Below are positions 1,191 to 18,911 of a stretch of DNA of 47,403 nucleotides, piece after piece. Position 1 is the stretch's first letter, and each line of letters starts with the position of its first letter. Source of the stretch: a bacterium (GTDB lineage: Bacteria > Patescibacteriota > CPR2 > UBA1875 > CAIMLA01); NCBI GenBank assembly GCA_037140175.1, contig JBAXEY010000002.1:1-47403 (forward strand). Reading direction: 5' to 3'. The notes beneath the pieces were generated by a model. It was not told the DNA's origin. It saw only the letters and a list, made by a program, of their open reading frames with translations, and searched no databases. The position numbers were made by a program, and so were the translations under genes.

Positions 1191-4100
1191 CTAGTTGTTT
1201 GTAGAGACATCTAAAGTGGCAGTAAGCGCGTTTAGGTTGTTCAATATTGATAAATTACTTTGGCATGAATATGTAGCCGTGCTAACCCCAAAAGGATCGA
1301 TTCCATTTCTTAAGCTCTCAATTTGGACTAGCGTGAGAGCGCGGCTATAATATCTAACTTCATCAATCGTTCCTTGAACCTTATTCATCGTCCCCGCAAC
1401 GTGTCCGCCACCAATCGTGGGATTCGTTGTGACTGCCCCGACTGAGTTGCTGTTTGTAGCACTGGCCTTTGACACCCCATCTACATAGAGGTTCCAAGAA
1501 TTGCCGCTTCTAACCATACTTATATGAAGCCATTGGCCCGTTGGTGGGACATACGAACTTTGTACTAAAATATTCCAGGATGAGACACTCGAAGCTAGAA
1601 AATTAAGCGTATTATTGCTTTCAAGATATAAAATATAGCCCGTTTGATCAACCGTACTTCTTCGATCAAGGATTAATTGATAGCCAACATTGTTAGCCGT
1701 GAAATTCACCCATAAATCAATCGTGAAGTCGTTACTGCCTGGATCATAGTATGTCTGGCTCGGGACCGTAATAATATCATTTGTCCCGTCGAAAGACCGT
1801 CCGTTGCCAAAGATACCCGTCGTGACATTCGTCGTTCTAGCAGATGTCGCCGTATTATTGTTTATAGAGGAGTCTGCCACAGATGCTGTCCCGGTTGTTT
1901 CGTTCATGCTCCAATAGGCAACCAAGTCACCAGTCGGTTTTTGGATATTCATATTATAAAAAGGTTGCCCGCCTGTTTTGATGGCCGGGGTGCCAGAGAC
2001 TGCAGAAAAAACCACCGTCGATGTATTGCAGCTCCAAATAGACCCTGACGAATCCCAATTTCCTGATACAACGATATTTGACGACCCAGCATTTAAAGCA
2101 CCACCCGTGGTCACAAGATTTAATATATTTATGGTTAATGCATTTGCATTAAAGGTACCGTTGCTTATGGTTAAATCATTAGCGATTGCGAGATTGGCAT
2201 TGTTTGTGAAGGCATTATTACCTGAGGTTGAGTTTATCTTCAGACTATAGTATGTATTTCCATATATAAGGTTCGTGTAAGAAGTCGATCCTCCATCACC
2301 AACATACTCAACCGTACCCGAATCGATATCTTTATTCGTAATCGCTAGGGTTTCTCCGCCCTGAACCTTTAGGGTGCCGTTGTTGGCAAATATATAAGGG
2401 ATTGTTGGGGTATAGCCATTAGTATAGAGTGTTCCATTATTTGTGAAGGAATAATAGGAAGAAGGCAGGGCGGTCAACATCACGGCCGTTGCTCCGTTAC
2501 TAATAGCCATCGTCGAGCCAGCCACGTTCGCGCCAAATGTTGAGTATGAAGGGTTATCCACCGAGCAACTTATATTTGTGTAGCCTGCAAACTCTAGCTT
2601 GGCGTACAACCTGACTGTAGTCGTGCCCGTTTGTGTATAGGTGAAGACAGTTGGGCTAGCTTGTGTTCCATCAACCATCTTAATGGTAAAGTTACTTGTA
2701 CCCGCGGGGTCACCAACGGTCGTATATGTGGAAGAACCGTTGTTTGTAACGGTCACGTTTTTATGAACGGTAATGACCGTATTATTAGTAGAGATAAGGC
2801 TCGTTGTATACCCGTACGGGTTGTTCGATGTTTGGTTAAATAAAAGGTCGTTTGAAACAGTAAAGTTATTAACTAGGTATATTGTTAAATACCCGTACCA
2901 GCCTTGTACGTCTGTATTAAATTTTAGATTGTAGAAAGTCGTAGTGTTGTTCGGGCTGAAGGTTAGAGTCTTAGCCCCATAAGCATAAGTGTCGAATACA
3001 AATAGACCACCCGTAGCGGTGAAGGTCCCGTTATCTGTGAAATCACCAGATTGATTCCAGGTCCCGGCGGTTTGCCGAACAACACCAAGGGCGTTATTGA
3101 TAAACAGACTGTTATTGTCAAAGATACCAGAACCCGAGTCGAAAGTGCCATTATTAATTATGGAGTAATAAGAAGAAACAACATTGCCCATTACCACTGT
3201 TCCGCCATTATCGGTTGTAAGGGTCGAGCCAGCCACGTTCGCGCCAAATGTTGAGTATGAAGGGTTATCCACCGAGCAACTTATATTTGTGTAGCCTGCA
3301 AACTCTAGCTTGGCGTACAACCTGACTGTAGTCGTGCCCGTTTGTGTATAGGTGAAGACAGTTGGGCTAGCTTGTGTTCCATCAACCATCTTAATGGTAA
3401 AGTTACTTGTACCCGCGGGGTCACCAACGGTCGTATATGTGGAAGAACCGTTGTTTGTAACGGTCACGTTTTTATGAACGGTAATGACCGTATTATTAGT
3501 AGAGATAAGGCTCGTTGTATACCCGTACGGGTTGTTCGATGTTTGGTTAAATAAAAGGTCGTTTGAAACAGTAAAGTTATTAACTAGGTATATTGTTAAA
3601 TACCCGTACCAGCCTTGTACGTCTGTATTAAATTTTAGATTGTAGAAAGTCGTAGTGTTGTTCGGGCTGAAGGTTAGAGTCTTAGCCCCATAAGCATAAG
3701 TGTCGAATACAAATAGACCACCCGTAGCGGTGAAGGTCCCGTTATCTGTGAAATCACCAGATTGATTCCAGGTCCCGGCGGTTGGTACGACAATGCCAGT
3801 AACAGAATTAATAAAAGCCCCATTAATATCAGAGATGCCGCTACCGAGACTAAAGGTGTCATTATTAGTAAAGGCCCCGTTATTAGTAAAGGTCCCTGTT
3901 CCGGTAACAACCGTCCCATTATTGGTAAGTGCCCCGTTATTAGTAAAGTTGTTTGATCCGGTCTCAAGCGTACCGTTGTTGGTGATGGAATAATAATTAG
4001 ACGTTACTGCAGATCCGACCTTTAGCGTCCCCCCGTTGTTAATTGTCATGGTTGAATTGGCATTATTAAGACCAAATGCTGGAATGCTCGAATTATAACT

Positions 4101-7100
4101 CTGACTTACGGTTACATACCCCGCGATCTGTAATTTGCTGTAAAAATATACCATTGGCCCATATTGACCGGTCTCTGAAACGGTTAATGTCTTTGGATTG
4201 GCTTGAGTGCCACCAGTCATTTTGACGGTGAAGTTCTGACTGGAAGATGGATCTCCAACCAAGGTCTGCCAGTTTGTAGAACTACCACTATTTGTCACTA
4301 AGACATTTCCAGCCACGGTAACCAAACAGTCATTGGCTGGGCATCTGACCCAGCTCGAATAACCACTTGTTGTTGTACTTAAGAAAAAGAGGTCGTTATT
4401 AACATTAAAACTATTTACAAAGTTAACTGCGCCATTTGCTATGTTTACGCTAATTGTTAGGTTATAGAAGCTTGTTGTCCCATCCGCCTTGGTTGTTAAT
4501 GTAACGGTTGCACCAGAATCAACCGTAAAAACTCCGGCTGCCATATTGAAAGTGCCGTTATCAGTAAAATTCCCAGATTGTAGCCAATTGCCGCCACTAG
4601 ATTGTACGGTGCCTGTTGCTCCATTGATAAATGAGCCGTTATTATCAAAGGTGTTTGCACCTGGGTTGAAAGTTCCGTTATTTGTAAATGAATAATAGCT
4701 AGATGGTAAATTTGTTGCTAAATTTGCCGTTCCTCCGTTTGCAATAGTGAGTATTGAGTTTGCATTATTTACCCCAAAAGCTGGAGCATTGGAGGTATAA
4801 GAATAGTTTATGTTTGTGTAGCCAGCAAGCTCTAATCTGGCATACATTCTAACGTCGACATAGTTTGTTCCTGTTTGAGAAAGAGTAAATGTTGTTGGGC
4901 TACCCGAAGTGCCTCCTGTCATTCTGATTGTAAGGTTTTGGGCTGGGCCAGGATTCCCCACCCATGTTTGATCATTAGAGCCAGTTCCATCCTTTGTGAC
5001 TGTGACGTTTCCCGCCGAAGTAATAACACAATTGTTTGCTGGACAAGAAACGTATCCTCCACTACCGTTAGCCATAGCCGTCGAATTAAATGATAGATTG
5101 CCATTAACATTAAAGTTATTAACCAAGTTAAGGCTTCCCGCAATGACATTAACATTGAAGTCATTAAAACTCGTTGTTCCGTCAGCTTTGGCTGTAAAAG
5201 AGATTGTTCCTGCGGAGTCAACGGTAAAAGCGCCCGCAGTAAGGTTAAACGTACCTGAATCAGTGAAGGTGCTTGATTGATACCAGTTTGACCCCGATGA
5301 AGACAGAACAGTCCCTGTTGAACCATTAGTAAAAATACTATTATTGTCAAAGCTGATAGTCCCAATATTAAAAGTCCCATTATTAGTAAATGAATAATAG
5401 CTAGATGGTAAATTTGTTGCTAAATTTGCCGTTCCTCCGTTTGCAATAGTGAGTATTGAGTTTGCATTATTTACCCCAAAAGCTGGAGCATTGGAGGTAT
5501 AAGAATAGTTTATGTTTGTGTAGCCAGCAAGCTCTAATCTGGCATACATTCTAACGTCGACATAGTTTGTTCCTGTTTGAGAAAGAGTAAATGTTGTTGG
5601 GCTACCCGAAGTGCCTCCTGTCATTCTGATTGTAAGGTTTTGGGCTGGGCCAGGATTCCCCACCCATGTTTGATCATTAGAGCCAGTTCCATCCTTTGTG
5701 ACTGTGACGTTTCCCGCCGAAGTAATAACACAATTGTTTGCTGGACAAGAAACGTATCCTCCACTACCGTTAGCCATAGCCGTCGAATTAAATGATAGAT
5801 TGCCATTAACATTAAAGTTATTAACCAAGTTAAGGCTTCCCGCAATGACATTAACATTGAAGTCATTAAAACTCGTTGTTCCGTCAGCCTTGGCCGTAAA
5901 AGAGATTGTTCCTGCGGAGTCAACGGTAAAAGTACCCGTCGTCAGGTTAAACGTACCAGAGTCAGTGAAGGTGCTTGATTGATACCAGGCGGTAATACTG
6001 CCGCTTGCAACACCAGCCGCATTATTTGTAAAGGATCCGTTATTGTCCCAAATCAAACTGCTGCTTAGAACAATTAGTTTGTTATTAATAAATGTTCCGG
6101 TGAAAATAAAGGTTCCTGTCCCCGGATCGAAGGTGTAATTATTTGTCAGAGTAGTCGCTACAATGTCATAACTATTCGTAATAATTGTTCCATTATTCAC
6201 CCAGGTAACGCCAGCAATCGTATTGTCACTTGTCAATGTGACTACGACTCCACTATCTACAGTATAAGTACTGCTTAATGATCCTCCCGTTTGGTCTGCG
6301 CTTATGTTCCCCTTAAAATTAATAGTCGAAGCCATACTCCCACCAGTATGAGAATATGTTTTATTATTTCCAGTCAGATTGAAGGTGATGCTTGTTACTC
6401 CACCGCTATTTACGTAAAAATTCCCACCTACGTTGACTGTGTATGGACCCGTAAGTGAGTAGTAGGTATTATTGATGGTAACATCGTTTGTGACGTCAAA
6501 ATTACTTTGCAGCGTCGCATAGCCGTCGTTCTTGCTGTAAAGAAAGTTATAGAAAGTCGCTCCACCAGGATTAAAATTATTATAATATCTGTCATCTATA
6601 ATAAAGTCCCCAGCAGTTGCTACAAATGACCCCTGGTTAAGGAACGCGGCTGATTGATACCATTTCCCCCCCGATTGATTGACTGCCCCTGTTGAGCTGC
6701 TTGTAAAAGTACCATTGCTGTCAAAATTGCCAGTGCTAAGATTGAAAGTCCCATTATTTTGCCAGACGGCGCTACCGCTAACTCCTGTTAACAAAGTAAG
6801 GCTTTTCGTGCTATTGATTGTCACTGTTTGTCCGCCCAAAGAAGCTCCAGTTTGGGAGAAATTCATATTTCCGTCAATGACAAGTGGGGCGCTAAGGTCA
6901 CCGCCGGTATGGGTAATTGTTTTGTTGTTGCCGAGAAAGGTAAAGGTCATACCATATAGGCCCCCCTGAGCATGACTAAAATTGCCATAGATCGTAATGG
7001 GGTAGACGCCAGTAGTGCATTGTAAGCTTTGATAACCACCCCAACCAATATTAAAATTGGCATCCCCTAAAACAGTAAAAGCACTTTGGAGGGTAACAAT

Positions 7101-8000
7101 CCCATCCCAATGGTAATCATTGAAATTGCTAAAACTAATTCCCCCAGGATTAAAGTTTCCACCAGCATTCCCATCTAGAGTAAAGGTTCCACTAAAAATA
7201 TTCGTCGTCCCCAGATTAGCAAAACCGCGCGCCGACTGAAACCAATTACTCGTTGGGGCGTTTATGGTCGCTCCCAAATTATTTGTAAGCGCGCCGTTAA
7301 AATCCCAGGCCCCACTTCCCCCAGTCATAACCCCAGCATTAGTAATTGCGGTTGTGCTTGAGGAAGTAAAGGCCCCACTTGATAGAATAATTGTGCCACT
7401 GTTTGACAAAGTACCACCAACAACAAGATCATACGCATTTAAAGTTAAGGATTTATTTAAATTCACGGTTAGATCATTAACATTTATCGCCGAACCAGCT
7501 GTGTAGGTGCCATTCATGGTCAGGTGAGCAAAGAAAATTGGTGAATGAGTGATTGTTTTACCTATTCCACTTAAGGTTAGTATCATTGGACCATTACTAT
7601 AACCAAAACGTCCGTCTGTTTGATTGAAGCTACCGCCAACATTAAAAGCTTTATACGTAAATGAATTGTCTACCGCCCCGCCTGTCTGATAATAATCCCC
7701 AGATATTGTTATTGGACCATAGGCATATATTGTGCCTCCGTTCAAAGTCAAACTGCCAGCGACGTTTCCGGCAATGTCATCTATTCTTACAATCCCGCCG
7801 TTAATCGTGACATCATCACTCGAGGTTGGGACAACGTCGTCAGACCAGTTTGCCGGAGTGCCCCAAGCATAATCGCCGCCGCCGCCATCCCAGGTCTTCC
7901 CCGCAGCAAATGACTTATTTACAAACATACAGTTAGAGATTACAGCTGCTGCAAGGACGAAAAGGAAAACAAAGCAAAAGTGGATAACGCCCCGATACAA
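1191..8000 (-). CDS. Giant secreted repetitive surface protein (adhesin-like). It has an N-terminal signal/anchor, long Asn/Gly/Thr-rich beta-helix-type repeats, five modules of about 235 aa, and a C-terminal LamG/concanavalin-like jelly-roll.
   Basis: 2,269-aa ORF. The hydrophobic N-terminus is FCFVFLFVLAAAVISNC..SFAAG, followed by GKTWDGGGGDYAWGTPANWS. The composition is low-complexity N/G/T/S throughout. A LamG-like stretch runs LVAYWSMNETTGT...GNGRSFDGTNDIITV...LWVNF...WLHISMVRSGNSWNLYVDG...IDEVRYYSRAL. The track start is TTG 7998-8000, but the true start may lie upstream (see findings). The ORF ends at TAG 1191-1193 while the frame continues. Confidence 0.85.
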   Translation of the reverse strand: MYRGVIHFCFVFLFVLAAAVISNCMFVNKSFAAGKTWDGGGGDYAWGTPANWSDDVVPTSSDDVTINGGIVRIDDIAGNVAGSLTLNGGTIYAYGPITISGDYYQTGGAVDNSFTYKAFNVGGSFNQTDGRFGYSNGPMILTLSGIGKTITHSPIFFAHLTMNGTYTAGSAINVNDLTVNLNKSLTLNAYDLVVGGTLSNSGTIILSSGAFTSSSTTAITNAGVMTGGSGAWDFNGALTNNLGATINAPTSNWFQSARGFANLGTTNIFSGTFTLDGNAGGNFNPGGISFSNFNDYHWDGIVTLQSAFTVLGDANFNIGWGGYQSLQCTTGVYPITIYGNFSHAQGGLYGMTFTFLGNNKTITHTGGDLSAPLVIDGNMNFSQTGASLGGQTVTINSTKSLTLLTGVSGSAVWQNNGTFNLSTGNFDSNGTFTSSSTGAVNQSGGKWYQSAAFLNQGSFVATAGDFIIDDRYYNNFNPGGATFYNFLYSKNDGYATLQSNFDVTNDVTINNTYYSLTGPYTVNVGGNFYVNSGGVTSITFNLTGNNKTYSHTGGSMASTINFKGNISADQTGGSLSSTYTVDSGVVVTLTSDNTIAGVTWVNNGTIITNSYDIVATTLTNNYTFDPGTGTFIFTGTFINNKLIVLSSSLIWDNNGSFTNNAAGVASGSITAWYQSSTFTDSGTFNLTTGTFTVDSAGTISFTAKADGTTSFNDFNVNVIAGSLNLVNNFNVNGNLSFNSTAMANGSGGYVSCPANNCVITSAGNVTVTKDGTGSNDQTWVGNPGPAQNLTIRMTGGTSGSPTTFTLSQTGTNYVDVRMYARLELAGYTNINYSYTSNAPAFGVNNANSILTIANGGTANLATNLPSSYYSFTNNGTFNIGTISFDNNSIFTNGSTGTVLSSSGSNWYQSSTFTDSGTFNLTAGAFTVDSAGTISFTAKADGTTSFNDFNVNVIAGSLNLVNNFNVNGNLSFNSTAMANGSGGYVSCPANNCVITSAGNVTVTKDGTGSNDQTWVGNPGPAQNLTIRMTGGTSGSPTTFTLSQTGTNYVDVRMYARLELAGYTNINYSYTSNAPAFGVNNANSILTIANGGTANLATNLPSSYYSFTNNGTFNPGANTFDNNGSFINGATGTVQSSGGNWLQSGNFTDNGTFNMAAGVFTVDSGATVTLTTKADGTTSFYNLTISVNIANGAVNFVNSFNVNNDLFFLSTTTSGYSSWVRCPANDCLVTVAGNVLVTNSGSSTNWQTLVGDPSSSQNFTVKMTGGTQANPKTLTVSETGQYGPMVYFYSKLQIAGYVTVSQSYNSSIPAFGLNNANSTMTINNGGTLKVGSAVTSNYYSITNNGTLETGSNNFTNNGALTNNGTVVTGTGTFTNNGAFTNNDTFSLGSGISDINGAFINSVTGIVVPTAGTWNQSGDFTDNGTFTATGGLFVFDTYAYGAKTLTFSPNNTTTFYNLKFNTDVQGWYGYLTIYLVNNFTVSNDLLFNQTSNNPYGYTTSLISTNNTVITVHKNVTVTNNGSSTYTTVGDPAGTSNFTIKMVDGTQASPTVFTYTQTGTTTVRLYAKLEFAGYTNISCSVDNPSYSTFGANVAGSTLTTDNGGTVVMGNVVSSYYSIINNGTFDSGSGIFDNNSLFINNALGVVRQTAGTWNQSGDFTDNGTFTATGGLFVFDTYAYGAKTLTFSPNNTTTFYNLKFNTDVQGWYGYLTIYLVNNFTVSNDLLFNQTSNNPYGYTTSLISTNNTVITVHKNVTVTNNGSSTYTTVGDPAGTSNFTIKMVDGTQASPTVFTYTQTGTTTVRLYAKLEFAGYTNISCSVDNPSYSTFGANVAGSTMAISNGATAVMLTALPSSYYSFTNNGTLYTNGYTPTIPYIFANNGTLKVQGGETLAITNKDIDSGTVEYVGDGGSTSYTNLIYGNTYYSLKINSTSGNNAFTNNANLAIANDLTISNGTFNANALTINILNLVTTGGALNAGSSNIVVSGNWDSSGSIWSCNTSTVVFSAVSGTPAIKTGGQPFYNMNIQKPTGDLVAYWSMNETTGTASVADSSINNNTATSARTTNVTTGIFGNGRSFDGTNDIITVPSQTYYDPGSNDFTIDLWVNFTANNVGYQLILDRRSTVDQTGYILYLESNNTLNFLASSVSSWNILVQSSYVPPTGQWLHISMVRSGNSWNLYVDGVSKASATNSNSVGAVTTNPTIGGGHVAGTMNKVQGTIDEVRYYSRALTLVQIESLRNGIDPFGVSTATYSCQSNLSILNNLNALTATLDVSTNN
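2512..3783. repeat. Two perfect 561-bp direct repeats (2512-3072 and 3223-3783, period 711 bp) inside the giant CDS
   Basis: Line-by-line comparison shows identity from GTCGAGCCAGCCACGTTCGC to GGTCCCGGCGGTT. The shadow ORFs 2631..2843 and 3342..3554 in the track are identical. The 150-bp spacer 3073-3222 is diverged. Confidence 0.9.
4684..5987. repeat. Two perfect 503-bp direct repeats (4684-5186 and 5386-5888, period 702 bp) inside the giant CDS. Near-identity continues to 5285/5987.
   Basis: Line-by-line comparison. The first mismatches are at 5187 vs 5889 (T/C). The shadow ORFs 4875..5093 and 5577..5795 are identical in the track. A third, diverged module lies at about 3990-4680. Confidence 0.9.
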
Positions 8001-8153: not shown

Positions 8154-11100
8154 TTATCCTACTGGCAATAATACTGTGACTTTGGTTCCTTGGTTTTCTT
8201 GTGACTTGATGGCGATATCGCCGCCCATATAGTTAGCTACTAATTTTGCAATAAATAGATTCGTCCCCATCCCTTGATAGTTAAACTGCATCAAATCCGT
8301 CGTATGAGAAAACGGCTGGAAAAGCATTTTTTGTCCTTCTTCAGAAATACCAATTCCTGTGTCTTCGATTGATATTTCCACATCTTTCCCGCCATTGTGG
8401 GCAGAGATATCGATCTGACCGCTATCTTTATTAAACTTGGCAGCATTGTCTATCAGGCTGGATAGGATAAAGAATAATTTTTGTTTATCAGCAGAGACAC
8501 CAATGTTTTTTTCTGGCAAATTTACTTTTATTCCTTTGGCCGCAATCTCTGATTCTTCTGCTTTAAGGCTTTGGCTGATAAGTGTGCTGGTATCGAGTTT
8601 CTGATTTCGCAAACCGGCTTTGCCTGCCTCAATGCTGGATAGGAAAGCAAATTTAGCTATCATCGATTTCATGTCAGCAATTCCTTTTTGAATCTCTTTG
8701 ACAGCTGTTTTATCTTTTACTTCGCTAATTTCGCCTTCGAGAATATTTACTTCCTTCTCCAAATCATTAGCGACTTCTGTTATAAAACGATTTCTAGCTT
8801 CATCCACAGCGACTTGTTGGGCAATCAATAAATCAAATTTTGTTTTATTGGCTTTCTGCGTTTCTCGCTTTCGAAGCGCAGTGAAAAGAACGACTCCCAA
8901 TATTACAAAGAAAGTACCCTGGATAAGGTAATTAACTACATTAATGTTAATACTAGCAACCGTCTCAAATAAGAAATTGGCTATTACCACCGTTAAAGCG
9001 ACAAAGATGATCGGCAAGATCAGTAAAGGCGAGGTATATATTCTAATTTTTTCTTGTTTAACCTCTGGCATGTTGATTGATTTCAAATAACTATTTTTGT
9101 CCACCTCGCCAAAGATATACTCAACCTTATTCGCTATCGCCTGGACTGAGCCTCGCAGCAATACTGCCGTCGCGGCCGTAACTTTATTTATCGTAAGGTA
9201 GAGGTCTACTCCTGAGTTAATAATCGTCATTGGCGTTCTAAGATAATGCGAGGATAATACCATAAAACTTTCCTTCTGGGTTGCTATGTTTTTTTCAAAG
9301 TCTAGTAATTTAACAAGTTTTTGAGCGTTGAAGGCCTCATTCTTGGCTTGTGCACCCAACCGCCAGATTAATATACCTAACAGGATAAAGAGTAAATACG
9401 GGAAGAAGTAGGCCACTGGTGGAGGAGTACTAGCTATAAACTGTTCCGCTCGATCAAAGACATTTGCCAAAATTGCACCAAAATCCTCAAGAAGAAGCTT
9501 GAAATCTTGAACTACTAGAGCAAAAAAACCGAGTTCTACTTCTTTCTTTTCTGGTTCAGTAAAGTTACTAACACCCAGAACTTTAACGCTTGCAGAAAGG
9601 TCGTGTTGGGTCACAAAATCTTTTCCTTGAGTAGTTTCAGCCCCAATAACGATCGAACAATAAGCGACTCCGTCCTCGATATAGCAATTATCTGCGTTGA
9701 CTGATTCGTTGTTGTCGAGAACATCTTCGATTTTGTAGCCTTTGTTGGGAGTAACGGTGAAATTATATCTTTGTCCGTCTTCTATCCCTGTTTCTTGAGA
9801 TTCTGGGGTGATGGTTCCGTTCTCTAATACTTGAGTAGTCACATTTGCATACTTAACAACAATCGCCTGAATAGTGTGGTTGGCATGGATGTTGTAGAAA
9901 GTATATGTGTTGACTGGTCCAACAGAGACCCCATCAACTAGAACATCTTTAACTCTTGAATTAGGAGAGAGAGCTAGGTTTAAGGTTATCATCCCTCCAT
10001 CAATAGAGTAGAAGCTCTGCCATGATTGCCAAGAAGCAACCTCGCCGTATGGCGTTCCGGTGCCGATAACCCTATCTGGCAAGAGGTAACTGACTGAAGC
10101 GGCCAGAGAATGATAAACAGTTGGAGGGACTACTGGAGGAACAACTGGGGGAATAATAGGAGGAACGACTGGACCATCGTTTGATGCAAAAGTGGCTGAA
10201 ATCGTATGGTTGGAATCTACATTAGTGAATCCATAAGAACTAGCTGCACCGATAGAGACTCCATCAACAAGAACGTCCGAGATGTGATAACCAGATGAAG
10301 GTGAGATATTAAATGTGAGATTATCTCCTAGAGTAACGGTATTTTCGCCAGAAGGTATTATTGAGCCATTCGCACCTGCTGTCCCTACAATCGTGTAGGT
10401 AGGCGCAACATAGTTTGGGTTGTAAAACCATAGCTCTTCTCCGTTAATTTCATCATCGTGAAAATAATAAAGTACGTCCTCCATTAAGCTGAAGTGATTT
10501 CCAGAACCAATTATTCCGTCTTGTTCTGTTCCCTCGGCTGTACCGTCTGATGTCCAGAGACTTATTGTGCCCTCGCCATCGCTCACGCGAAAATAAAGCA
10601 CATTTCCAGCATTTTCAAAATCCAAAATTCCTCCCATACCTGGTAATATTTCTTTTACCATGTATGTACCGCCAACAGTTCCATCACTTCTCCATAATTC
10701 CCGACCATGAGACCCATCGTCAGCTGTAAAATATAAAATCCCATTCATTTCAATAAAGTCATTGGGATGAGAACCGTCTGAGCCAGGGTTTATGTCCAAA
10801 ACCATTACTAACCCCCCCACAGCGCCATTCATCGCCCATAACTCATAACCATTGAGAGCATCCCATCCTGAACCAAATATATAATCACCAGCAACTTTTA
10901 AAGCGCTGAAGTTAGAGCTTTCAAACAAGAAGGTGGTATCGTTGCCGTCCGTCTTATAATTCGCTTTGTATCCCATCCCATCTTGCACTTCAAAATACAC
11001 TTCATTTTTAAAAGCTATGAAACTGTTAATCTCATATGTGTCATCAAAATGTTCTACTACTCTGGTCCCCGCGGGGCTACCGTCGCTAATCCAAAGATCA

Positions 11101-14100
11101 CAACCCCCACCAGAGCAGGTGGTGTAAAATAAATTATCACCAAACACTATGCTATATCCGACATCCTCAAGTTCCTTTACAAGTACGGTTCCGCTCGAAG
11201 TCCCATCAGACTTCCATAGACTAGCATCCCCTCCAAGGCCTTTGCTCACTGTCATAAACATAATATTGTTTCCAATGTGAAGGTTCCAAATAATAGTCAA
11301 TTCTTCTGGGTGAAAAGGGTCTACTGGATAAAAGTCTTCAACCAAATGTGTACCTCCAACTGTCCCATCTGAAGTCCACAACTCCTGTCCTCCCATGTAA
11401 TTAGCGGTAAAATAAAGCTTATCTTCAAAACTAACTAGCCTGCTAATATTATGTAGACCAGCAGACAAACTGTAGGTTCCTGAATCAGTCCCGTCCGAGC
11501 ACCAAAGCGTATTTGATTCCTCAGATTCGGCAGAGCTAAAAAACAACTTTTCCCCAATAACAGTAATAGGGGAGCCGCCTACAAAATAACTCTCCCAGCT
11601 TCCATCAATATTTTTTACTATACAAGGGCCAGTTCCCGAGCAATAAAAAGGCTGAATCGTATGTGAAGACAAAACATTTGTGAATTGATAAGTAACAGTT
11701 GCGGTGGTTTTTACACCGTCAATAAGAAGATAAGCTAGATAGTACCCTGGGTTTGTGGTGATTGTGTATTCTAAGCTATTACCCCCCTCGGTTATCTCCA
11801 ACCTACCCACTGGAGTGATAGTGCCCCCTGTTCCAGTTACGGAAGTAATTGTATGCTTAAGCGAAAACCAATAAGTGTTATTCCCAGAATCAATGCTATT
11901 GGTTGGATTAATATATTGCTCGCTTAAATTATTATTGTCTTTTATATCCAAATAATCGACCATGATTGTACCTTCGGGATCAATATATGACTGTGTATCC
12001 GTATTGCTACTTCGTAATAGTATCTGATAGCTTGAGTCGCCTTTTACAAACAATTCGCCTTGGATGGTTGTTGTTTTGTTGGCTTCAAAAATCAAAGTTT
12101 TGTCTGAAATAATAGGAGGATCTATCTGAGCAAATTGGACTTCAGAAGCGTCGCCCACGGACTGCTCATATCCGCCAACAATATATACATACCCGTTCCA
12201 GACCGCCCCCCAATGCTCAATCAATGGTTTCGAAATTTTGGCATCTAATTCTTGCCAAATATTAATGTCATGATTTGCATTTATGGTTGTATAGTAAACA
12301 TTGCTTATATAATTTTCATTGTCATCTTGCCCACCAATCAAATAAACTTTATTATTATCTGCTGCCACTGTCGAATAGGATATCGGGAATGGTAGCAATC
12401 TGGCTGAGGCTGACCAGGCTCCTAAGCTTCCATCCAAATTTATTTCAGCAAATTGGGTGTCAGAATAATCCCCAACCCCATATCCACCAACGATGTAAAG
12501 ATAATTATCATAGACGAAGGATACTAGTTCTTCTCGACCACCTACAAACGAATTTCCTGAGATAGTAAAAATTCCAACAGAGCCATCAGCAGGATCAAGG
12601 GTAGCATATTCAGTTATGTTTGTATCCGCTGCCCCGTCTTGCCCGCCAATTACATACAAAAATCCGTTATAGGCTAAGGAAGCTTGATACCTGCGAGAGG
12701 AACTAAGTTCGTTGGTTGCGATAGTCCAAGTTCCGATTGAGCCATCTGAATTAATCTTTGCATATTCAACATCGCTATAATCATTATTGTTATCAAAGCC
12801 GCCTACTACATACAAATACCCGTTATAAACTGCTGATGAATGGTACGCCCTTGCTTTATTCAATAGGTTGGGGCTTATGGTCCAATCGCCAACTGTTCCA
12901 TCGTTATTTATCTTTGTATAACGGACAACATCTAAATAGACACCTCCAGAAACATACCCACCCAGAACATAGATATAACCGTTATATATTTCAATCGTGT
13001 GGCCTTCGATACCAATATCGAGAGACGTTGTGTTGCTAAAATCTCCTAAAACTTTTTGACGATTATCTACTTTAAAATTATTAAATGTTGTTGAGCCATT
13101 AATTTGTTGGCTGCCGATACCAGTAAATTCAATTGATCCATAATTGTGATAGAAACCGACACCTTGGACATTGCTGGGATTATTATTCGTAAAATTCTTA
13201 GCTAGCCTCCAAACACCAGATGTGGCAGTCACTATTGATGTTGCGTCGTTCGTAAAATTACCTCGAAAATCCCAGTTGCCGGTAGACCCGCTCAGCTGAG
13301 CCCCGGCTTGATTAGTAAAATTTCCTATAACTGTTAGCGCTTTTACGAAAAGGAAGCTGGCCGTATTGATATCGACATCTTGACTGAATGTTGCGATATT
13401 GGTTGATGTCAAATAACTGCCGTTAATGACTGTCGTACTTCCATTCACGGTAATGTTTGCGGCAGTAACAAACCCGTATTCGAATTGACCATTTCCATAT
13501 TTATCAACTACCAAAGATCCACCGATATTTAAGTTTTCGCCAATATATGCTTGCCCATGTATATCAGCCAATCCCCCTGTGACAATCGAGTGGTATGTTT
13601 GAATATACAAACGCGTACCGGTCAAGCTCCCTGTGATATTTAGATTTCCAGGGTATATAGAGGAGTCTCCATTAACGTCACCATTTAATACAACATTGCC
13701 ACCGATTGTGACATCGCCCCTATTTTGTCCAGCTATACCAGTATCGATAAATCCTTTTTCAGAAGTAAGGTTGCCATCAATGTCTATGCTTCCATGTATA
13801 TATAATTCCCCATTATTTATTGAGACATTACCGCCAACTTGCAATGAAACGCTATGAATATCGCTTTCCGTGTACAGGTCTTCGGTAATAATCAGGTTAT
13901 TCCCTGCAAATACTGAGCCCGTTGCATCTAATGAGCCATTTATTGTTAAGTTCCCAATGTCGGCGTTGATAAACTCTCTGTTTTCAAAATCAGCATTTAT
14001 GGTTATATCACCAATATCGGTCATAATAGTTCCACTATTAACAGTTTTCCCACCGATAACTATACTGCCAGTGCTGCTATACAAGACACCGTTATTGCCT

Positions 14101-17100
14101 ATTATTAATAGTCCACCAATATTTATATCATTTGCTAGAACGATAAACCCATTAGTTACGACATAGCCATTAACTGTTAGAGTATGACAATTGATGCCTG
14201 ACCCTGGCCCTAATGGTAAAGTGATACCATTATCAACAAACAAATTAGCTACGACACGGATATTTTCATTAACAGTTATGACTCCCGTGTACCCAACACT
14301 ACTCCCGGTATATGTTTGATAAAAGGAAAGTAAATTAACATTCACCGGAACATCTATTGTCACATCTTTTAAGCCCGTGTTATCAAATATTGCTGCATCC
14401 TCCACTCCTGGTGTGTCCAGAGCAGTTGCTCCATTAACTAACCAATTTTCGGGCTCTGACCAATTGTTGGTGATCCCAAGACCAGACCAGTAATAGATAT
14501 CGCCTTGAGCAAATAAAGCCGTTACGTTTATGCCCCCTTGAATATTTAAATCAGTCCTCGAGGGGGTCATTACCCCATCGCTCCAGCCAAGAAAATAATA
14601 ACCGTTTATAACATCTGGTTCTGCTGTGACCTGAGTTCCGTCCGCGCCATAATTAACTGTTTGCGGAGTTGTGCCGTGAAGGTGACTATTCGGCCCAGCT
14701 GTATAAGTCAGGGTGTAAACATTATTATCAAATTGAGCTGTAACAAATATATCGTTCTGAACGTTTAAATCACTCCTAGTGGCAGTCAGAACCCCGTCGC
14801 TCCAAGTTTGAAAATGATAACCAGTATTTGGGACCGCCGTAACTACCGAACCATCTGCACCTTGTTCAACTAATTGGTAAGTAGTCCCTGTAATTGAGCC
14901 ATTAGCGCCAGCCGTATAGGACAAACCAAAAGTCACACTCGGTATAAAGGTTGGGTAACCATTTGCATGAGCATACCAAATGTTGACAAAGTCCCAGGAA
15001 GTAAATGGAAGCCTTGTACTAACGTCAGTACCTTTAAAATAGTTGGTACTACCTTCTAAAATTGGTTGATCGCTCCCACTTCTCCCGTCACCAATACCAG
15101 GGGAATTGTTGATAGCAAAATTAGCTGTTACCGTCAGATCTGACCATACCCCATAGTCTATTCTTGCGGCTGTGGTTACCCCATCACTCCAGGCTATAAA
15201 CATAAAACCAGGGTTAGGTATGGCAATTACTTCTGCTCCATCTGAGCCCTCGTTGGCTAGTTGAGGATTGTCACCTTGAATACTACCATTTGCTCCTGCT
15301 AGATAATTTAAGGTGTAGGTTGTGGAAGGATTGACCTCAAAAGTAGCGGTGACTGTCATGTCGGTTTGAATGTCTAGGTCATTTCTCTCTGCAGTAAGGA
15401 CCCCATCACTCCAACTAACAAATTGATAACCAGCAGCTGGAACTGCTGTGACCTTTAACCCGTCTGCACCTTGGTAAACGGCTTGAGAAGTCACCCCAGA
15501 GATGCTCCCATTCCCAGCAGAACTATAGGTTAAGGTTCGGGATAACAACGGGTCAATCGCAAAAACTGCCGTTACGTTTATATTTGTAATAACATTTAAA
15601 TCAGTCCTCGTAGCGGTAAGGACTCCATCGCTCCACCGAACAAACAGATAACCAACATCAGGGATAGCCGTCACCCCTGAACCATTTGAACCCTGAATAA
15701 TTATTTGGGGTATAGTTCCGCTAATATTGCCATTTGTTCCTGGTGTGTAATTTAAGACATAAGCAGTTATTTGGCTGCCGTACCAATAATTATTAGCCGT
15801 ACTATAATTAAAGTCGCTTCCAAAACCTATTAATCCACCAACCCGGCCTGCATTTTCGCCTACAGTAATATTCCCCGCACTAAAGCAATTTGAAACTCCA
15901 TAATCTCCCGACCAAGGAGCGGTATCTAGCCCAATCAATCCCCCCGTATAAGAATATCCAAATGAGCCTGCTACGTTTGTCACGTCACCAGACGAGTATG
16001 AGTTTCTAACCACTCCCTCGTTTGAGCCGATTAAGCCTCCAACAGTTGGGCTATAGTTCAAATTGTATATACTGCCTACATTGCCCCAAGAATATGTATC
16101 AGAAATATAACTGCCGTCTACAGCATATCCGACTAGCCCGCCAATGTTGTATTTACCAGAGACATCACCCTCAGCATATGATTGTGTAATCGTTCCTCTG
16201 TTTCCACCAACCAGTCCGCCAGCATTGGTTGCCGAGACATTCCCCGTCGCATATGAAGTAGTAATAACTGTTGATCCGTTGCTTTCACCGACTAAACCTC
16301 CAGCCGTCCCAGAAAACCAATTAAACCCAGCAAAAGCGTCACTACCAGTAATATTGACGCTTGAGGAACTGTTCGACATTGTTGAATTGCTCAACCTACC
16401 GGCTATTCCACCATAGGCAGAATACGCCGCTGTTCCATAATATTCAAAACCGAGAGCAACAACTGGGGTTTGAACAAATTGACTCTTGGGGATAACCATT
16501 TCGCAAGTCGCATGGTTATATCCCACTTTACTCGTCAGCCCAAAGCCACATACCCCATAAGTATTATCCATGGCACTGATTACAAATCTTTTGTTTCCAA
16601 CGGTTACGGCAAACCAATCTTTATTGTAATCATTGGTATTATCAACAGTGACGTCTGCCGTAATATAGAGATTAGTGCTATCATCTGAGAAATACAAATA
16701 TACATTCCCCCATGGATGGCCCGTAGAGGGCATAAGATAGGTGGTATATGAAGGTGTAGAGCCATCAGTTTCGCCAATATTTCCATCAGGAATAATCGTT
16801 TTTACGTTTGATCCTAAAGTATAGCTAACCGTCCCATTTTCCGGAAATTGCATCGGTACACCACGACCGTATTCATTGGCCGTCAATTTTAGGGTAGCCC
16901 TAGAAGCGCCTTGGGGCAAAAACCAGGTAATATTAATAGGCTTATTGTGGGAAACGACTACATTATTATCAATCTTTAAAATATCTTCGAGAACGCTTTG
17001 TGTGGTTCCGGAGTAAATAGCCGAGACAGGAGCGAGGTCTACTCCACCGACGCTTAATATCGCTGCATCTATCCCAGCAAATTCATAACGACCATTTTGA

Positions 17101-18476
17101 TTTATCCTCAATGTAAATGAGCCATCAATATTACTGAATATAAAGTTCTTCGTCGTATAATCTACGGCAAATCCCTGATCATAAACTTCTGTAAAAACAC
17201 CATTGGCTAGCCTCTCAATGTGAAAGCTCCCAGCTTCAACTGGTGTAATGCTCCCGCTCGTGTGGACGTTTGTGATTGTTGAATTAGCCGTGATCCATCC
17301 CGCCAAAACACCGTTTAGCCCCCCAACGGCTTTGATAGTGGCATTCCCAATGGTCAGATTTTTAATTTCTCCCCCATCCACATACCCAAATAAGCCGGTC
17401 ATCCCGATAGGGTTTGTTCCTCCGTCTATATAGAGGTTATTAATGGAGTATCCTTTTCCATCGAATATCCCCCCACTAAGGCCCAAGGGCACAAACCCTT
17501 GGTAGTAACCCGGAATTGGGTCACCATTTTCAGGATCTTTATCTATCCAATTCCAAAGTTGAGTATCGGATGCATCTATGTTTTTAATGAGCTCAAAATT
17601 TTGATTTATGTATGGATGCTGATTATACTGGTCCGTAATCCCGATTGATTGAAGCTGCGAAACAGTAGACACCTGGTAGGGGGCGCTAACACTGCCATTG
17701 CCTCCCGCAAATGTTTCTAGAAATCTAGCCGTTATTACACCAGAATTTGCAGGATTAGTTGCAGGGACTGCTGTCCCATCCACTGTGAAATAGTTTTGAG
17801 TTGCTCCATTTAATGTATAGCCTGCTTTCGCTGTAAGGGTAATAGTCGCGATATATGGTGTGCCAGTTGTAAATTTCCCGCTTGGCGGTAATGGCGACCA
17901 GGTAACCAAGCCTGTAAATTGATCAGTCTCGGTAATTGTTGACGTTGGAGTTCCCCCAATTGCTGGGATCCCAACACCATCGATCCATGTATATGCGACT
18001 ATTGACGGGAATACTGCTGTAACAACACCCGATTGAGGATTATTTGTTGAAGTAGCTCCAGAAAGAGAGAAATAATTCTGGGTCACATTGTCTAATGAAT
18101 AACCTTGCTCAGGTGTAAGTGTAATTGTGGCCGTGTATTCCCATCCTGCATAAAACGTCCCTTCAAGTGGACCATTAGTAGTCGACCATGCCACAGTTCC
18201 AGTATATTCCGGCGTTGGTGTGATAGCCGAAACCGGTGTTGCTCCGACTGATGGCGCCGTTACTCCTTGAATGTCAGTCAATGAAATATCAGGGGGTGAG
18301 GCCGCAAAGGCTTTATTGGCTGACACTAATCCGACTGTTAGGGAAATAATAAGGACAAAAAAAGAGACAATACAAAGTCGTATAAGTCCCTCATACAAGG
18401 ATTTACTTTCGGCCGTTTTCTTCCTTCCATTCTTTAGAAAGAGGAGTCTAGTTGGCTTAAGAAATTTTTTAATCAT
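8154..18476 (-). CDS. Giant (3,440 aa) multidomain surface protein with a C-terminal transmembrane histidine-kinase module
   Basis: ATG at 18476 is preceded by AGGAACG. The signal/anchor is LCIVSFFVLIISLTVGLVSANKAFAAS. Approximate modules by nt: Ig-like pair 17720-18300; GLUG-type repeats (GGLVG/GGLIG) about 15790-16420 and 17250-17450; five divergent InlB-B-type repeats (GY.F..WSDGV.TA.R.D.....VTA.F) about 14500-15780; beta-helix-like region about 13060-14480; Kelch-like propeller (NGY.YV.GG) about 12110-13030; ELWxxDGT-type repeats about 10430-11600; Pro-rich linker PPIIPPVVPPVVPP about 10110-10170; further Ig-like domains 9600-10100; kinase module 8157-9425. Domain names come from motif recognition only. 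Confidence 0.9.
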   Translation of the reverse strand: MIKKFLKPTRLLFLKNGRKKTAESKSLYEGLIRLCIVSFFVLIISLTVGLVSANKAFAASPPDISLTDIQGVTAPSVGATPVSAITPTPEYTGTVAWSTTNGPLEGTFYAGWEYTATITLTPEQGYSLDNVTQNYFSLSGATSTNNPQSGVVTAVFPSIVAYTWIDGVGIPAIGGTPTSTITETDQFTGLVTWSPLPPSGKFTTGTPYIATITLTAKAGYTLNGATQNYFTVDGTAVPATNPANSGVITARFLETFAGGNGSVSAPYQVSTVSQLQSIGITDQYNQHPYINQNFELIKNIDASDTQLWNWIDKDPENGDPIPGYYQGFVPLGLSGGIFDGKGYSINNLYIDGGTNPIGMTGLFGYVDGGEIKNLTIGNATIKAVGGLNGVLAGWITANSTITNVHTSGSITPVEAGSFHIERLANGVFTEVYDQGFAVDYTTKNFIFSNIDGSFTLRINQNGRYEFAGIDAAILSVGGVDLAPVSAIYSGTTQSVLEDILKIDNNVVVSHNKPINITWFLPQGASRATLKLTANEYGRGVPMQFPENGTVSYTLGSNVKTIIPDGNIGETDGSTPSYTTYLMPSTGHPWGNVYLYFSDDSTNLYITADVTVDNTNDYNKDWFAVTVGNKRFVISAMDNTYGVCGFGLTSKVGYNHATCEMVIPKSQFVQTPVVALGFEYYGTAAYSAYGGIAGRLSNSTMSNSSSSVNITGSDAFAGFNWFSGTAGGLVGESNGSTVITTSYATGNVSATNAGGLVGGNRGTITQSYAEGDVSGKYNIGGLVGYAVDGSYISDTYSWGNVGSIYNLNYSPTVGGLIGSNEGVVRNSYSSGDVTNVAGSFGYSYTGGLIGLDTAPWSGDYGVSNCFSAGNITVGENAGRVGGLIGFGSDFNYSTANNYWYGSQITAYVLNYTPGTNGNISGTIPQIIIQGSNGSGVTAIPDVGYLFVRWSDGVLTATRTDLNVITNINVTAVFAIDPLLSRTLTYSSAGNGSISGVTSQAVYQGADGLKVTAVPAAGYQFVSWSDGVLTAERNDLDIQTDMTVTATFEVNPSTTYTLNYLAGANGSIQGDNPQLANEGSDGAEVIAIPNPGFMFIAWSDGVTTAARIDYGVWSDLTVTANFAINNSPGIGDGRSGSDQPILEGSTNYFKGTDVSTRLPFTSWDFVNIWYAHANGYPTFIPSVTFGLSYTAGANGSITGTTYQLVEQGADGSVVTAVPNTGYHFQTWSDGVLTATRSDLNVQNDIFVTAQFDNNVYTLTYTAGPNSHLHGTTPQTVNYGADGTQVTAEPDVINGYYFLGWSDGVMTPSRTDLNIQGGINVTALFAQGDIYYWSGLGITNNWSEPENWLVNGATALDTPGVEDAAIFDNTGLKDVTIDVPVNVNLLSFYQTYTGSSVGYTGVITVNENIRVVANLFVDNGITLPLGPGSGINCHTLTVNGYVVTNGFIVLANDINIGGLLIIGNNGVLYSSTGSIVIGGKTVNSGTIMTDIGDITINADFENREFINADIGNLTINGSLDATGSVFAGNNLIITEDLYTESDIHSVSLQVGGNVSINNGELYIHGSIDIDGNLTSEKGFIDTGIAGQNRGDVTIGGNVVLNGDVNGDSSIYPGNLNITGSLTGTRLYIQTYHSIVTGGLADIHGQAYIGENLNIGGSLVVDKYGNGQFEYGFVTAANITVNGSTTVINGSYLTSTNIATFSQDVDINTASFLFVKALTVIGNFTNQAGAQLSGSTGNWDFRGNFTNDATSIVTATSGVWRLAKNFTNNNPSNVQGVGFYHNYGSIEFTGIGSQQINGSTTFNNFKVDNRQKVLGDFSNTTSLDIGIEGHTIEIYNGYIYVLGGYVSGGVYLDVVRYTKINNDGTVGDWTISPNLLNKARAYHSSAVYNGYLYVVGGFDNNNDYSDVEYAKINSDGSIGTWTIATNELSSSRRYQASLAYNGFLYVIGGQDGAADTNITEYATLDPADGSVGIFTISGNSFVGGREELVSFVYDNYLYIVGGYGVGDYSDTQFAEINLDGSLGAWSASARLLPFPISYSTVAADNNKVYLIGGQDDNENYISNVYYTTINANHDINIWQELDAKISKPLIEHWGAVWNGYVYIVGGYEQSVGDASEVQFAQIDPPIISDKTLIFEANKTTTIQGELFVKGDSSYQILLRSSNTDTQSYIDPEGTIMVDYLDIKDNNNLSEQYINPTNSIDSGNNTYWFSLKHTITSVTGTGGTITPVGRLEITEGGNSLEYTITTNPGYYLAYLLIDGVKTTATVTYQFTNVLSSHTIQPFYCSGTGPCIVKNIDGSWESYFVGGSPITVIGEKLFFSSAESEESNTLWCSDGTDSGTYSLSAGLHNISRLVSFEDKLYFTANYMGGQELWTSDGTVGGTHLVEDFYPVDPFHPEELTIIWNLHIGNNIMFMTVSKGLGGDASLWKSDGTSSGTVLVKELEDVGYSIVFGDNLFYTTCSGGGCDLWISDGSPAGTRVVEHFDDTYEINSFIAFKNEVYFEVQDGMGYKANYKTDGNDTTFLFESSNFSALKVAGDYIFGSGWDALNGYELWAMNGAVGGLVMVLDINPGSDGSHPNDFIEMNGILYFTADDGSHGRELWRSDGTVGGTYMVKEILPGMGGILDFENAGNVLYFRVSDGEGTISLWTSDGTAEGTEQDGIIGSGNHFSLMEDVLYYFHDDEINGEELWFYNPNYVAPTYTIVGTAGANGSIIPSGENTVTLGDNLTFNISPSSGYHISDVLVDGVSIGAASSYGFTNVDSNHTISATFASNDGPVVPPIIPPVVPPVVPPTVYHSLAASVSYLLPDRVIGTGTPYGEVASWQSWQSFYSIDGGMITLNLALSPNSRVKDVLVDGVSVGPVNTYTFYNIHANHTIQAIVVKYANVTTQVLENGTITPESQETGIEDGQRYNFTVTPNKGYKIEDVLDNNESVNADNCYIEDGVAYCSIVIGAETTQGKDFVTQHDLSASVKVLGVSNFTEPEKKEVELGFFALVVQDFKLLLEDFGAILANVFDRAEQFIASTPPPVAYFFPYLLFILLGILIWRLGAQAKNEAFNAQKLVKLLDFEKNIATQKESFMVLSSHYLRTPMTIINSGVDLYLTINKVTAATAVLLRGSVQAIANKVEYIFGEVDKNSYLKSINMPEVKQEKIRIYTSPLLILPIIFVALTVVIANFLFETVASININVVNYLIQGTFFVILGVVLFTALRKRETQKANKTKFDLLIAQQVAVDEARNRFITEVANDLEKEVNILEGEISEVKDKTAVKEIQKGIADMKSMIAKFAFLSSIEAGKAGLRNQKLDTSTLISQSLKAEESEIAAKGIKVNLPEKNIGVSADKQKLFFILSSLIDNAAKFNKDSGQIDISAHNGGKDVEISIEDTGIGISEEGQKMLFQPFSHTTDLMQFNYQGMGTNLFIAKLVANYMGGDIAIKSQENQGTKVTVLLPVG
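8157..9425 (-). other. Histidine-kinase module of the giant protein: TM1, His-containing DHp, TM2, TM3, His-less DHp-like helix pair, then the HATPase_c catalytic domain
   Basis: TM1 is VAYFFPYLLFILLGILIWRL. The H-box is FMVLSSHYLRTPMTIINSGVDL, with the His codon at 9246-9248. TM2 is SPLLILPIIFVALTVVIANFLF and TM3 is YLIQGTFFVILGVVLFTAL. The second DHp-like segment is RNRFITEVANDLEKEV, with Asn at 8766-8768 where His is expected. The catalytic domain has an N-box LIDNAAKF, G1 EDTGIGI, F-box LFQPF and G2 GMGTNL. Confidence 0.8.
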
Positions 18477-18830: not shown

Positions 18831-18882
18831 AATAAGGTTGTGAATCATTCCCCTCGCTTTTGTTTCTATATCGAACAGCTTA

Positions 18883-18911
18883 AGAATAATATTTAGCCAT
18901 CTGATTGTCAA
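18883..18911 (-). promoter_or_regulatory. Candidate sigma70-type promoter upstream of the orphan leader copy (TTGACA-17-TATTCT)
   Basis: Reverse complement of 18906-18911 is TTGACA and of 18883-18888 is TATTCT, with a 17-nt spacer. This is hexamer matching only. Confidence 0.3.

Follow-up and report, generated by a model that had tools for sequence, protein, structure and literature searches.

The contig JBAXEY010000002.1 of a Patescibacteriota assembly of the CPR2 lineage (GCA_037140175.1) was analysed over a stretch of 47,403 nt, here called the window, and a gene on its minus strand encodes a protein of 3,440 amino acids (aa) in which a giant adhesin-type ectodomain is fused to a membrane histidine kinase module. 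The open reading frame (ORF) at 8154-18476 has an ATG start, 3,440 codons and zero internal stops, and its GC skew is negative throughout, which fits coding on the minus strand. A preliminary description of the stretch had proposed this fusion, and it stands: the ORF is uninterrupted, and the same design is found in an independent contig (L088), in a positional orthologue (P0252) and in further relatives. From the N-terminus to the C-terminus, with transmembrane segments abbreviated as TM and the dimerization and histidine phosphotransfer domains as DHp, the gene is composed as follows.

8154..18476 (-): giant sensor kinase gene, 3,440 aa, stop codon included; a called gene of the same length is present in contig L088
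18300..18476 (-): predicted N-terminal signal peptide or anchor, residues 1-59, with a basic N-region, a core at 26-59 and the motif AFA/AS after it (hydropathy and sequence)
17712..18299 (-): two surface repeats of ~97 aa at the distal tip, residues 60-255, 47-49% identical to repeats of a Cohnella SLH-domain protein
15777..17711 (-): GLUG-repeat region with an insert of ~270 aa (420-690), residues 256-900 (GLUG E=1e-15, four stretches, segment scanned alone)
14487..15770 (-): six divergent InlB B-repeat modules, residues ~903-1330 (Flg_new_2 E=1.4e-50, six stretches; DNA repeat family D4)
13062..14486 (-): Gly/Asn-rich, putatively beta-helix-like region, residues ~1331-1805, named from its appearance only
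12117..13049 (-): Kelch beta-propeller, residues ~1810-2120 (Kelch_KLHDC2 E=1.5e-20 at residues 1825-2007; Kelch_1 E=1.4e-14)
11640..12116 (-): conserved cap segment and one B-repeat-like module, residues 2121-2279 (37-68% identity to P0252, L004 and L009)
10407..11639 (-): ELWxxDGT-repeat propeller, residues ~2280-2690 (TIGR04534 E=3.4e-61, five stretches)
9507..10406 (-): four membrane-proximal B-repeat-like modules, residues 2691-2990 (Flg_new_2 E=3.4e-9, two stretches)
10113-10181 (-): Pro-rich linker, residues 2766-2788, read from the sequence, with the stretch PVVPPIIPPVVPPVVPP at residue 2769
9354..9506 (-): juxtamembrane helix and TM1 (PPPVAYFFPYLLF...), residues 2991-3041, family-conserved (hydropathy)
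9087..9353 (-): DHp1, a HisKA-type helical hairpin, residues 3042-3130, with the predicted phospho-acceptor His3077 at 9246-9248 in the motif SSH-Y-LRTP
8874..9038 (-): TM2-TM3 membrane hairpin with a short outer loop, residues 3147-3201 (hydropathy; AlphaFold2 helices 3150-3172 and from 3178 onward)
8622..8873 (-): DHp2, degenerate, residues 3202-3285, with Asn3237 at the His position (FITEVANDL)
8157..8609 (-): catalytic ATP-binding domain, residues 3290-3440 (HATPase_c E=1.7e-21; predicted local distance difference test, pLDDT, ~85-91)

A Kyte-Doolittle hydropathy scan over 19 residues shows that the entire protein has only four hydrophobic segments, namely residues 26-59, which follow a basic stretch, and ~3018-3041, ~3147-3172 and ~3178-3201. 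The ~2,958 residues from ~60 to 3017 contain no further one, in agreement with the ~2,960 residues estimated before, and because the hydrophobic segments are found only at both ends of the protein, everything between them is taken as one exported stretch. A secretion signal followed by arrays of GLUG and B-repeat modules is what adhesins and S-layer-type proteins possess (Pfam, hydropathy). Hundreds of surface proteins in diverse bacteria contain repeats resembling those of the tip, and Pfam assigns no family to residues 60-255 at E<=1. The same applies to the insert at 420-690, for which a single-sequence AlphaFold2 model (residues 420-700) was uninformative with a pLDDT of 36 and was not used; the GLUG region as a whole (residues 256-900) also has a weak Pfam match to Peptidase_M26_N. 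No significant Pfam family (E<=1) was found in residues ~1331-1805; the end of this region is similar to the N-terminus of P0252 and, with E=3e-5, to the unit repeated in the downstream gene. Carbohydrate-binding or enzyme families were not detected in the ectodomain by Pfam or NCBIfam. Of the modules listed in the preliminary description, the GLUG, InlB-B-type, Kelch and ELWxxDGT repeats are thus recovered by Pfam or NCBIfam profiles and the Pro-rich stalk by its sequence, but the Ig-like domains and the beta-helix have no profile match.

The kinase module begins behind the B-repeats, whose last array (residues 2691-2990) continues colinearly through the membrane junction in P0252 (41% identity) and L004 (49%). 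Its ATP-binding part is unambiguous in profile searches: PF02518 (HATPase_c) matches residues 3330-3439 with E=1.7e-21, and the motifs of the ATP site are all present (N box Asn3344, G1 DTGIG 3372, F FQPF 3386, G2 GMG 3402). The DHp domain with the H-box SSHYLRTPMT around His3077 is more remote. Pfam HisKA has no match there when the window sequence is searched alone, and a single-sequence phmmer search against the PDB gives only weak HK853 matches (E=0.14-1). With a family profile of 28 sequences, all significant PDB matches are kinase DHp domains in which the His is aligned (HK853 E=1.2e-7, EnvZ ~1e-6, CpxA, SrrB and WalK, range to 1e-4), and in the relatives L083, L068 and L004 Pfam HisKA itself matches the position equivalent to DHp1. 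Both halves of the core can therefore be supported by profiles. A second region aligns to kinases as well, as positions ~374-606 of a whole-module profile, which correspond to DHp2 and the catalytic domain, match complete DHp-catalytic units of WalK/YycG and also match BceS.

An AlphaFold2 model of the module, made with the family alignment (pLDDT 76, predicted template modelling score 0.66), has one continuous helix of 78 residues (3019-3096) that runs from TM1 into the His-bearing helix, followed by the second DHp1 helix, TM2, a helix of 74 residues that leads from TM3 into DHp2, and a well-modelled catalytic domain. Foldseek matches of the model include DivL (4q20, the top match), BceS (8g3a_D, 341 columns, E=2.5e-12), ZraS, HK853, CpxA and RetS. 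His3077 lies 38 residues past TM1 and Asn3237 lies 35 residues past TM3, and basic residues border the cytoplasmic ends of the membrane helices, which is consistent with a cytoplasmic location of DHp1, DHp2 and the catalytic domain. The module thus contains two DHp-like domains, DHp1 with His3077 and DHp2 without a conserved His. This arrangement of a two-helix membrane hairpin and a His-less second DHp between the H-box and the ATP-binding domain had been overlooked when the core was called complete-looking; the H, N, G1, F and G2 boxes are indeed there, but DHp and catalytic domain, which are contiguous in HisKA kinases, are here separated by TM2, TM3 and DHp2, or ~200 residues, and the His is followed by a Tyr. 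Two relatives, P0001 and P0013, carry the NCBI name "HAMP domain-containing sensor histidine kinase", but a HAMP domain is not supported for the module, since Pfam HAMP has no match and the modelled helix is continuous from TM1 to DHp1.

The continuity of the gene can be judged from independent data. Contigs of the same organism were reached by a look-up of the neighbouring Mur ligase gene, as an exact-sequence look-up of the 3,440-aa protein gave zero matches. One of them, L088 (54.6 kb, from another sample), is 99.93% identical to the window and aligns without gaps over 21,308 bases, covering 9523-30830; its called gene has exactly 3,440 aa and contains Flg_new_2, Kelch and HATPase_c. The junction between ectodomain and kinase, for which the preliminary description had considered a misassembly, is unbroken in other assemblies, as well as in homologues that are 41-49% identical. 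It is colinear in L004 (49% identity over 748 residues, window residues 2695-3435), similarly in L008 and L009, and in P0252 (41% identity over 755 residues). P0252 has 3,627 aa and is encoded on a related 842-kb contig (Ga0613821_000001), where it is the positional orthologue of the window kinase, as both loci have the gene order rubrerythrin, TPR, LeuRS, TsaD, FemAB, Mur ligase, giant kinase. Near-identical long repeats were not found within the giant gene. Because of the independent assembly, the conserved junction, the synteny and the absence of long repeats, the fusion is real and not an assembly artefact, and as the design recurs and is syntenic, the finding is better founded than a single sequence would allow.

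Two irregularities were seen in other contigs. In L089, from a near-identical strain, 32 of the 41 mismatches to the window fall into 15324-15571 (codons 969-1051, in the B-repeat array) and are mostly synonymous, which is either a strain-level hot spot, an exchange between repeats, or repeat cross-talk in the assembly. The final 101 nt of L090 (6409-6509) match window positions 18801-18901 in inverted orientation next to a colinear match, probably a fold-back artefact at the contig end.

The kinase module belongs to a family that is found almost exclusively in Saccharibacteria/Patescibacteria assemblies (108 loci in a scan with one genome per species). A search with the C-terminal 456 residues gave 17 homologues of the full module with 27-42% identity, and at least 150 clusters, formed at 50% identity, had E<1e-124 in a profile search of the full library. 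The homologues align in the same order: a juxtamembrane helix, TM1 (PPxVAxxFPYLLF), the H-box xSHYLRTPLT, a pair of membrane helices, D-x-A-R-N-x-[FL]-I and the catalytic domain. The window protein shares this split-DHp order, with ectodomain, TM1, DHp1 (SHYLRTP), TM2, TM3, His-less DHp2 and catalytic domain. Among 80 loci, most genes encode only 600-700 aa, which leaves a small ectodomain of ~100-200 aa that is one small beta-rich domain in most members. Lengths above 1,000 aa are found at 13 of these 80 loci and in 17 of the best 150 library matches; ~15% of the members possess an ectodomain of 600-2,700 aa. The largest are L082 (3,095 aa), L009 (2,526), L010 (1,966) and L083 (1,915), followed by L005, L006, L027, L042 and L068 with ~1,400 aa each; the genes of L037 and L004 are cut at contig ends. 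In the survey of related genomes that had been proposed, the design recurs, with ectodomains that reach ~3,190 aa in relatives.

The giant members have a common topology of one N-terminal and three C-terminal hydrophobic segments, and the content of their ectodomains is mostly unrelated, with RCC1, NHL, Vgb-lyase/Reg_prop, fn3, He_PIG and Big modules:

L005 and L006: RCC1 propellers, in L005 also an invasin-type Ig domain
L027 and L042: NHL/SGL propellers
L068: Vgb-lyase/Reg_prop-like propellers
L082: NHL and fn3
L037: He_PIG/Y_Y_Y

A neighbour-joining tree built from the kinase module places the window protein with L004-L010 and L028, all of which are large or truncated, and the remaining giants are scattered elsewhere. 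Because the giants scatter in this tree and have mostly unrelated ectodomains, the kinase module is judged, by sequence comparison, to be constant and the ectodomain to have been repeatedly exchanged and expanded. In one genome, the paralogues L005 (1,470 aa) and L006 (1,413 aa) with their RCC1-type propellers lie ~15 kb apart on CAZQLQ010000001.1, which points to a local duplication of a sensor gene. A literature search for this kinase family, or for kinases with giant ectodomains in Saccharibacteria/Patescibacteria, found nothing relevant.

Conservation was assessed with 81 sequences, the window protein and the 80 genome loci, which are 23-49% identical. Invariant in all of them are the His, the Tyr at +1, the Thr at +4 and the next Pro, as well as the Asn of the N box, Asp and Gly of G1, and the Gly-x-Gly of G2. 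DHp2 has no conserved His in this set. Because the His and the ATP-site residues are invariant at such low identity, the pattern argues for a working phospho-acceptor and ATP site. As to the origin of the split, the distant giant L082 has SHYLNTP in DHp1 and keeps an "AAHELQS" in DHp2, and because of this retained motif it is suggested that DHp2 is a former phospho-acceptor domain. A unit of ectodomain, TM1 and DHp1 may then have been added or duplicated ahead of a BceS-like core, and in L082 both DHp sites might be active. L082 itself is encoded at 1886-11173 of contig JAXLZV010000001.1 and is the member of 3,095 aa with an NHL propeller and fn3.

Several known systems share parts of this design. 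HisKA kinases such as HK853, EnvZ, CpxA and WalK/YycG have the DHp hairpin with xSHxLRTPLT, the N, G1, F and G2 boxes of HATPase_c, and a membrane helix that continues into the His helix. They differ in that they have Glu or Asp after the His instead of Tyr, in that their DHp is not split from the catalytic domain by two TMs and a His-less DHp, and in their ectodomain of ~100-300 aa instead of ~2,960 aa; in the family studied here, moreover, HAMP is absent and an adjacent response regulator usually missing. The intramembrane-sensing kinases of the BceS/LiaS type lack an ectodomain; their two membrane helices, joined by a minimal loop, lead into a DHp whose His is active and from there into the catalytic domain. 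The order TM2, short loop, TM3, DHp2 and catalytic domain resembles them in layout and fold. The window protein is nevertheless not one of them, as DHp2 lacks the His, an additional N-terminal unit of ectodomain, TM1 and DHp1 is present, and no BceAB-type transporter is encoded nearby. With the His-less DivL and RetS it shares the fold of DHp2 and the catalytic domain, but unlike these it retains an invariant His, which is located ahead of the membrane hairpin in a DHp of its own.

Extracytoplasmic propellers and Ig-like modules fused to a kinase are known from the hybrid two-component systems of Bacteroides, which combine Reg_prop propellers, Y_Y_Y, HisKA, HATPase, a receiver and an AraC-type HTH in one chain. 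The likeness would be one of functional analogy: the window protein has no Pfam match to Reg_prop, Y_Y_Y, Response_reg or HTH_AraC and hence no receiver or AraC output, its propellers are of the Kelch and ELWxxDGT types, its ectodomain is ~4x longer, and its DHp arrangement is different. GLUG and Flg_new_2 modules, as well as the tip repeats that are 47-49% identical in the Cohnella SLH protein, also occur in the GLUG/InlB-B-repeat surface proteins of Firmicutes (SLH-anchored proteins, N-terminal region of IgA1 proteases), but there the anchor is SLH, LPXTG or a secretion signal and not a kinase module with three TMs. A loose precedent, compared by description, are the giant proteins of Omnitrophota, which are likewise very long and mostly extracellular with membrane helices, and for which HATPase_c is among the frequently observed domains in a localisation figure (bioRxiv 10.1101/2023.11.21.568195). 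These are at least 10x longer, belong to another phylum with other domain sets, and are not described as sensor kinases. A sensor kinase as such is thus of a known kind, and what is new is that the DHp is split, that the His is followed by Tyr and that the ectodomain reaches up to ~3,000 residues.

Downstream of the kinase gene, on the same strand, follows a second large gene:

1191..8000 (-): secreted repeat protein of 2,269 aa with Gly/Asn/Thr-rich repeats and a C-terminal LamG domain

The 153-nt spacer between the two genes has no terminator-like site, and because of this the downstream gene is possibly co-transcribed with the kinase. Its product shares a weak repeat similarity with the kinase ectodomain (E=3e-5), and it may belong to the kinase system. 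The gene contains two long tandem duplications with spacings of 711 nt and 702 nt, whose 300-nt cores are 95% and 90% identical, and which may be prone to copy-number change or to collapse in assemblies.

Upstream of the kinase gene lies an ORF-free gap (18477-19522), in which ~480 nt at 19017-19515 on the plus strand have a GC content of 46-58%, as compared to ~40% in the genome. The plus strand of this segment is predicted to fold with -202 kcal/mol (z=-7.1 relative to shuffled sequences; z=-3.7 for the minus strand). A promoter-like TTGAAA-17-TATATT at 18988-19016 precedes the GC-rich stretch, and a 15-bp hairpin with a T-run at 19462-19499 ends it. Rfam gave no match to 19017-19515 even at E<=1, a transfer-messenger RNA was not found there, and the gap showed no sequence homology to its counterpart in L087. 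The segment is a candidate for a structured RNA.

Elsewhere in the window, a heliorhodopsin gene (32579-33355, plus strand, PF18761 E=5e-99) adjoins genes of the DsbB and PAP2 families. By its domain content, the region 36827-46120 on the plus strand is a type IV secretion-like cluster such as occurs in conjugation systems of Gram-positive bacteria: it encodes a PilB-type ATPase (T2SSE), Hsp20, three T4SS_pilin-domain proteins, a member of the PrgI family and an ATPase like VirB4/TraG. With the heliorhodopsin, FemAB and Mur ligase genes, this cluster and its PilB-type ATPase form a gene context that fits Saccharibacteria as the probable source. At 26708-29299 and 36053-36725, an AAA_14/DUF4143 ATPase, a Fic-domain protein and a Phd/YefM-PIN toxin-antitoxin pair are encoded among housekeeping and four tRNA genes.

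Taken as a whole, the window protein is best regarded as a functional, surface-exposed receptor kinase of a family that occurs almost only in Saccharibacteria genomes, with a variable ectodomain that comprises ~2,960 residues here; this reading is given a probability of roughly 0.6. Ligand or contact sensing through a swappable ectodomain is the best reading of its role, and host-contact sensing is plausible. In the lineage of the window, the ectodomain would have grown by the addition of modules, namely the surface repeats, the GLUG region, the B-repeats, two propellers and the Pro-rich linker. TM1 would shift when the long ectodomain binds a ligand that is polymeric or fixed to a surface, or when it comes under tension, and because HAMP or another linker is absent, such a shift would act directly on the His-bearing helix. 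The ATP-binding domain, which the adjoining DHp2 would hold as a scaffold roughly as far below the membrane as His3077, would then phosphorylate this His, and the phosphoryl group would be passed to a response regulator encoded elsewhere.

Several points weigh against this reading. The Tyr that follows the His in 81 of 81 sequences replaces the usual Glu or Asp, and HisKA kinases depend specifically on an acidic residue at His+1 for their autokinase activity, just as they need Thr or Asn at His+4 to act as phosphatases (PMC3510030). Because the Tyr stands in the place of this required residue, canonical chemistry at the His-Tyr site is not guaranteed. For a His-bearing DHp that is not contiguous with its catalytic domain, no characterised precedent was found. 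The window encodes no response regulator according to Pfam, which bears out what had been noted before, and a response regulator is found within 10 kb of the kinase at only 5 of 83 loci. The six receiver ORFs that were scanned with Pfam contain Response_reg only, save for a RibD_C in the same stop-to-stop stretch in L053, and the kinases P0003 and P0012 are likewise orphans. The passage of a signal through ~2,960 residues of loosely linked modules is hard to account for, and signal-peptide cleavage and topology were judged from hydropathy alone.

The alternative that survives best leaves the kinase intact and is concerned with the ligand. Free glycans or fragments of the cell wall may be what the propellers and Ig-like modules bind, and the ectodomain would be this long only in order to reach beyond the wall. 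Relatives with many propeller types, including Reg_prop/Y_Y_Y-like matches as in the Bacteroides sensors, fit with such soluble ligands, and the Pro-rich linker adjoining the membrane-proximal modules could span the wall. However, the modules at the tip are of the S-layer/adhesin type and no carbohydrate-binding or enzyme family was detected. Soluble ligands are rather improbable, and as this alternative differs from the receptor kinase reading solely in the nature of the ligand, it would leave the rest of that reading untouched.

A more specific version of the receptor kinase, which is rather unlikely, is a histidine kinase of a kind not described before, with substrate and enzyme as separated halves. 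DHp1, as the phospho-acceptor hairpin, would be wired straight to the membrane helix of the sensor, and the ATP-binding domain would sit on the His-less DHp2, which has a membrane hairpin of its own. One chain would supply both halves, arranged as a pseudo-dimer within the chain or as bundles lying next to each other, with a non-canonical His-Tyr site, and in this version the giant members would read mechanical load or the binding to a host surface through an adhesin of ~3,000 residues.

Quite unlikely is the view that the protein is mainly a giant adhesin with a C-terminal pseudokinase or membrane anchor, which may bind ATP or act as a scaffold without taking part in a His-Asp phosphorelay. 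The modules are indeed typical of adhesins and S-layer proteins, there is no Pfam HisKA match on the window sequence and no nearby response regulator, DHp2 is His-less as in DivL, which together with RetS is among the Foldseek matches, and Tyr takes the place of the acidic residue needed for HisKA autophosphorylation (PMC3510030). On the other hand, 81 sequences that are only 23-49% identical all retain the His and every ATP-binding motif, which would be difficult to account for if the module were not catalytic, the Thr at His+4, a phosphatase determinant, is likewise invariant, and a module that in most members carries an ectodomain of only ~100-200 aa is not just the anchor of an adhesin.

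The loss of the kinase determinant at His+1 with an invariant Thr at His+4 (PMC3510030) would also agree with a DHp1 that serves mostly as a regulated phosphatase, or as a relay of the Hpt type, for a regulator that receives its phosphoryl group from another donor, with the ectodomain gating that activity and not autophosphorylation; the physical distance of the His-bearing domain from the catalytic domain fits in with this. Yet the conserved N, G1, F and G2 boxes argue for a use of ATP. Other kinase classes (HisKA_3, CheA) take the catalytic base from other positions, and the Tyr is thus no proof of a lost kinase activity. This explanation is equally improbable. That a misassembly or a missed frameshift has made one ORF out of an adhesin gene and a distinct kinase gene could be suspected in a gene this long and modular, and from the mismatch cluster in the B-repeat array near the end of contig L089, but with the gapless alignment to L088 and its called gene, the colinear junction in L004, L008, L009 and P0252, the synteny with the P0252 locus and the lack of near-identical long repeats it is close to refuted and essentially excluded.

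In the interaction of epibionts with their hosts, type IV pili are the main factor studied so far. A recent preprint describes host recognition and response by ultrasmall epibiotic bacteria as largely unknown (bioRxiv 10.1101/2024.11.25.624915). A constant signalling module with an exchanged ectodomain, ranging from one small domain to ~3,000 residues, is a testable candidate for the sensing of environment or host by these organisms. In the two-component field, the split DHp layout and the invariant His-Tyr would call for a fresh explanation of the way in which the ATP-binding domain gets to its substrate, and as members with small ectodomains probably exist also in cultivable Saccharibacteria, genetics and biochemistry would be feasible. 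If the giant members indeed read load or host-surface binding with a split kinase, they would be direct contact-to-phosphorylation sensors of epibiotic Saccharibacteria.

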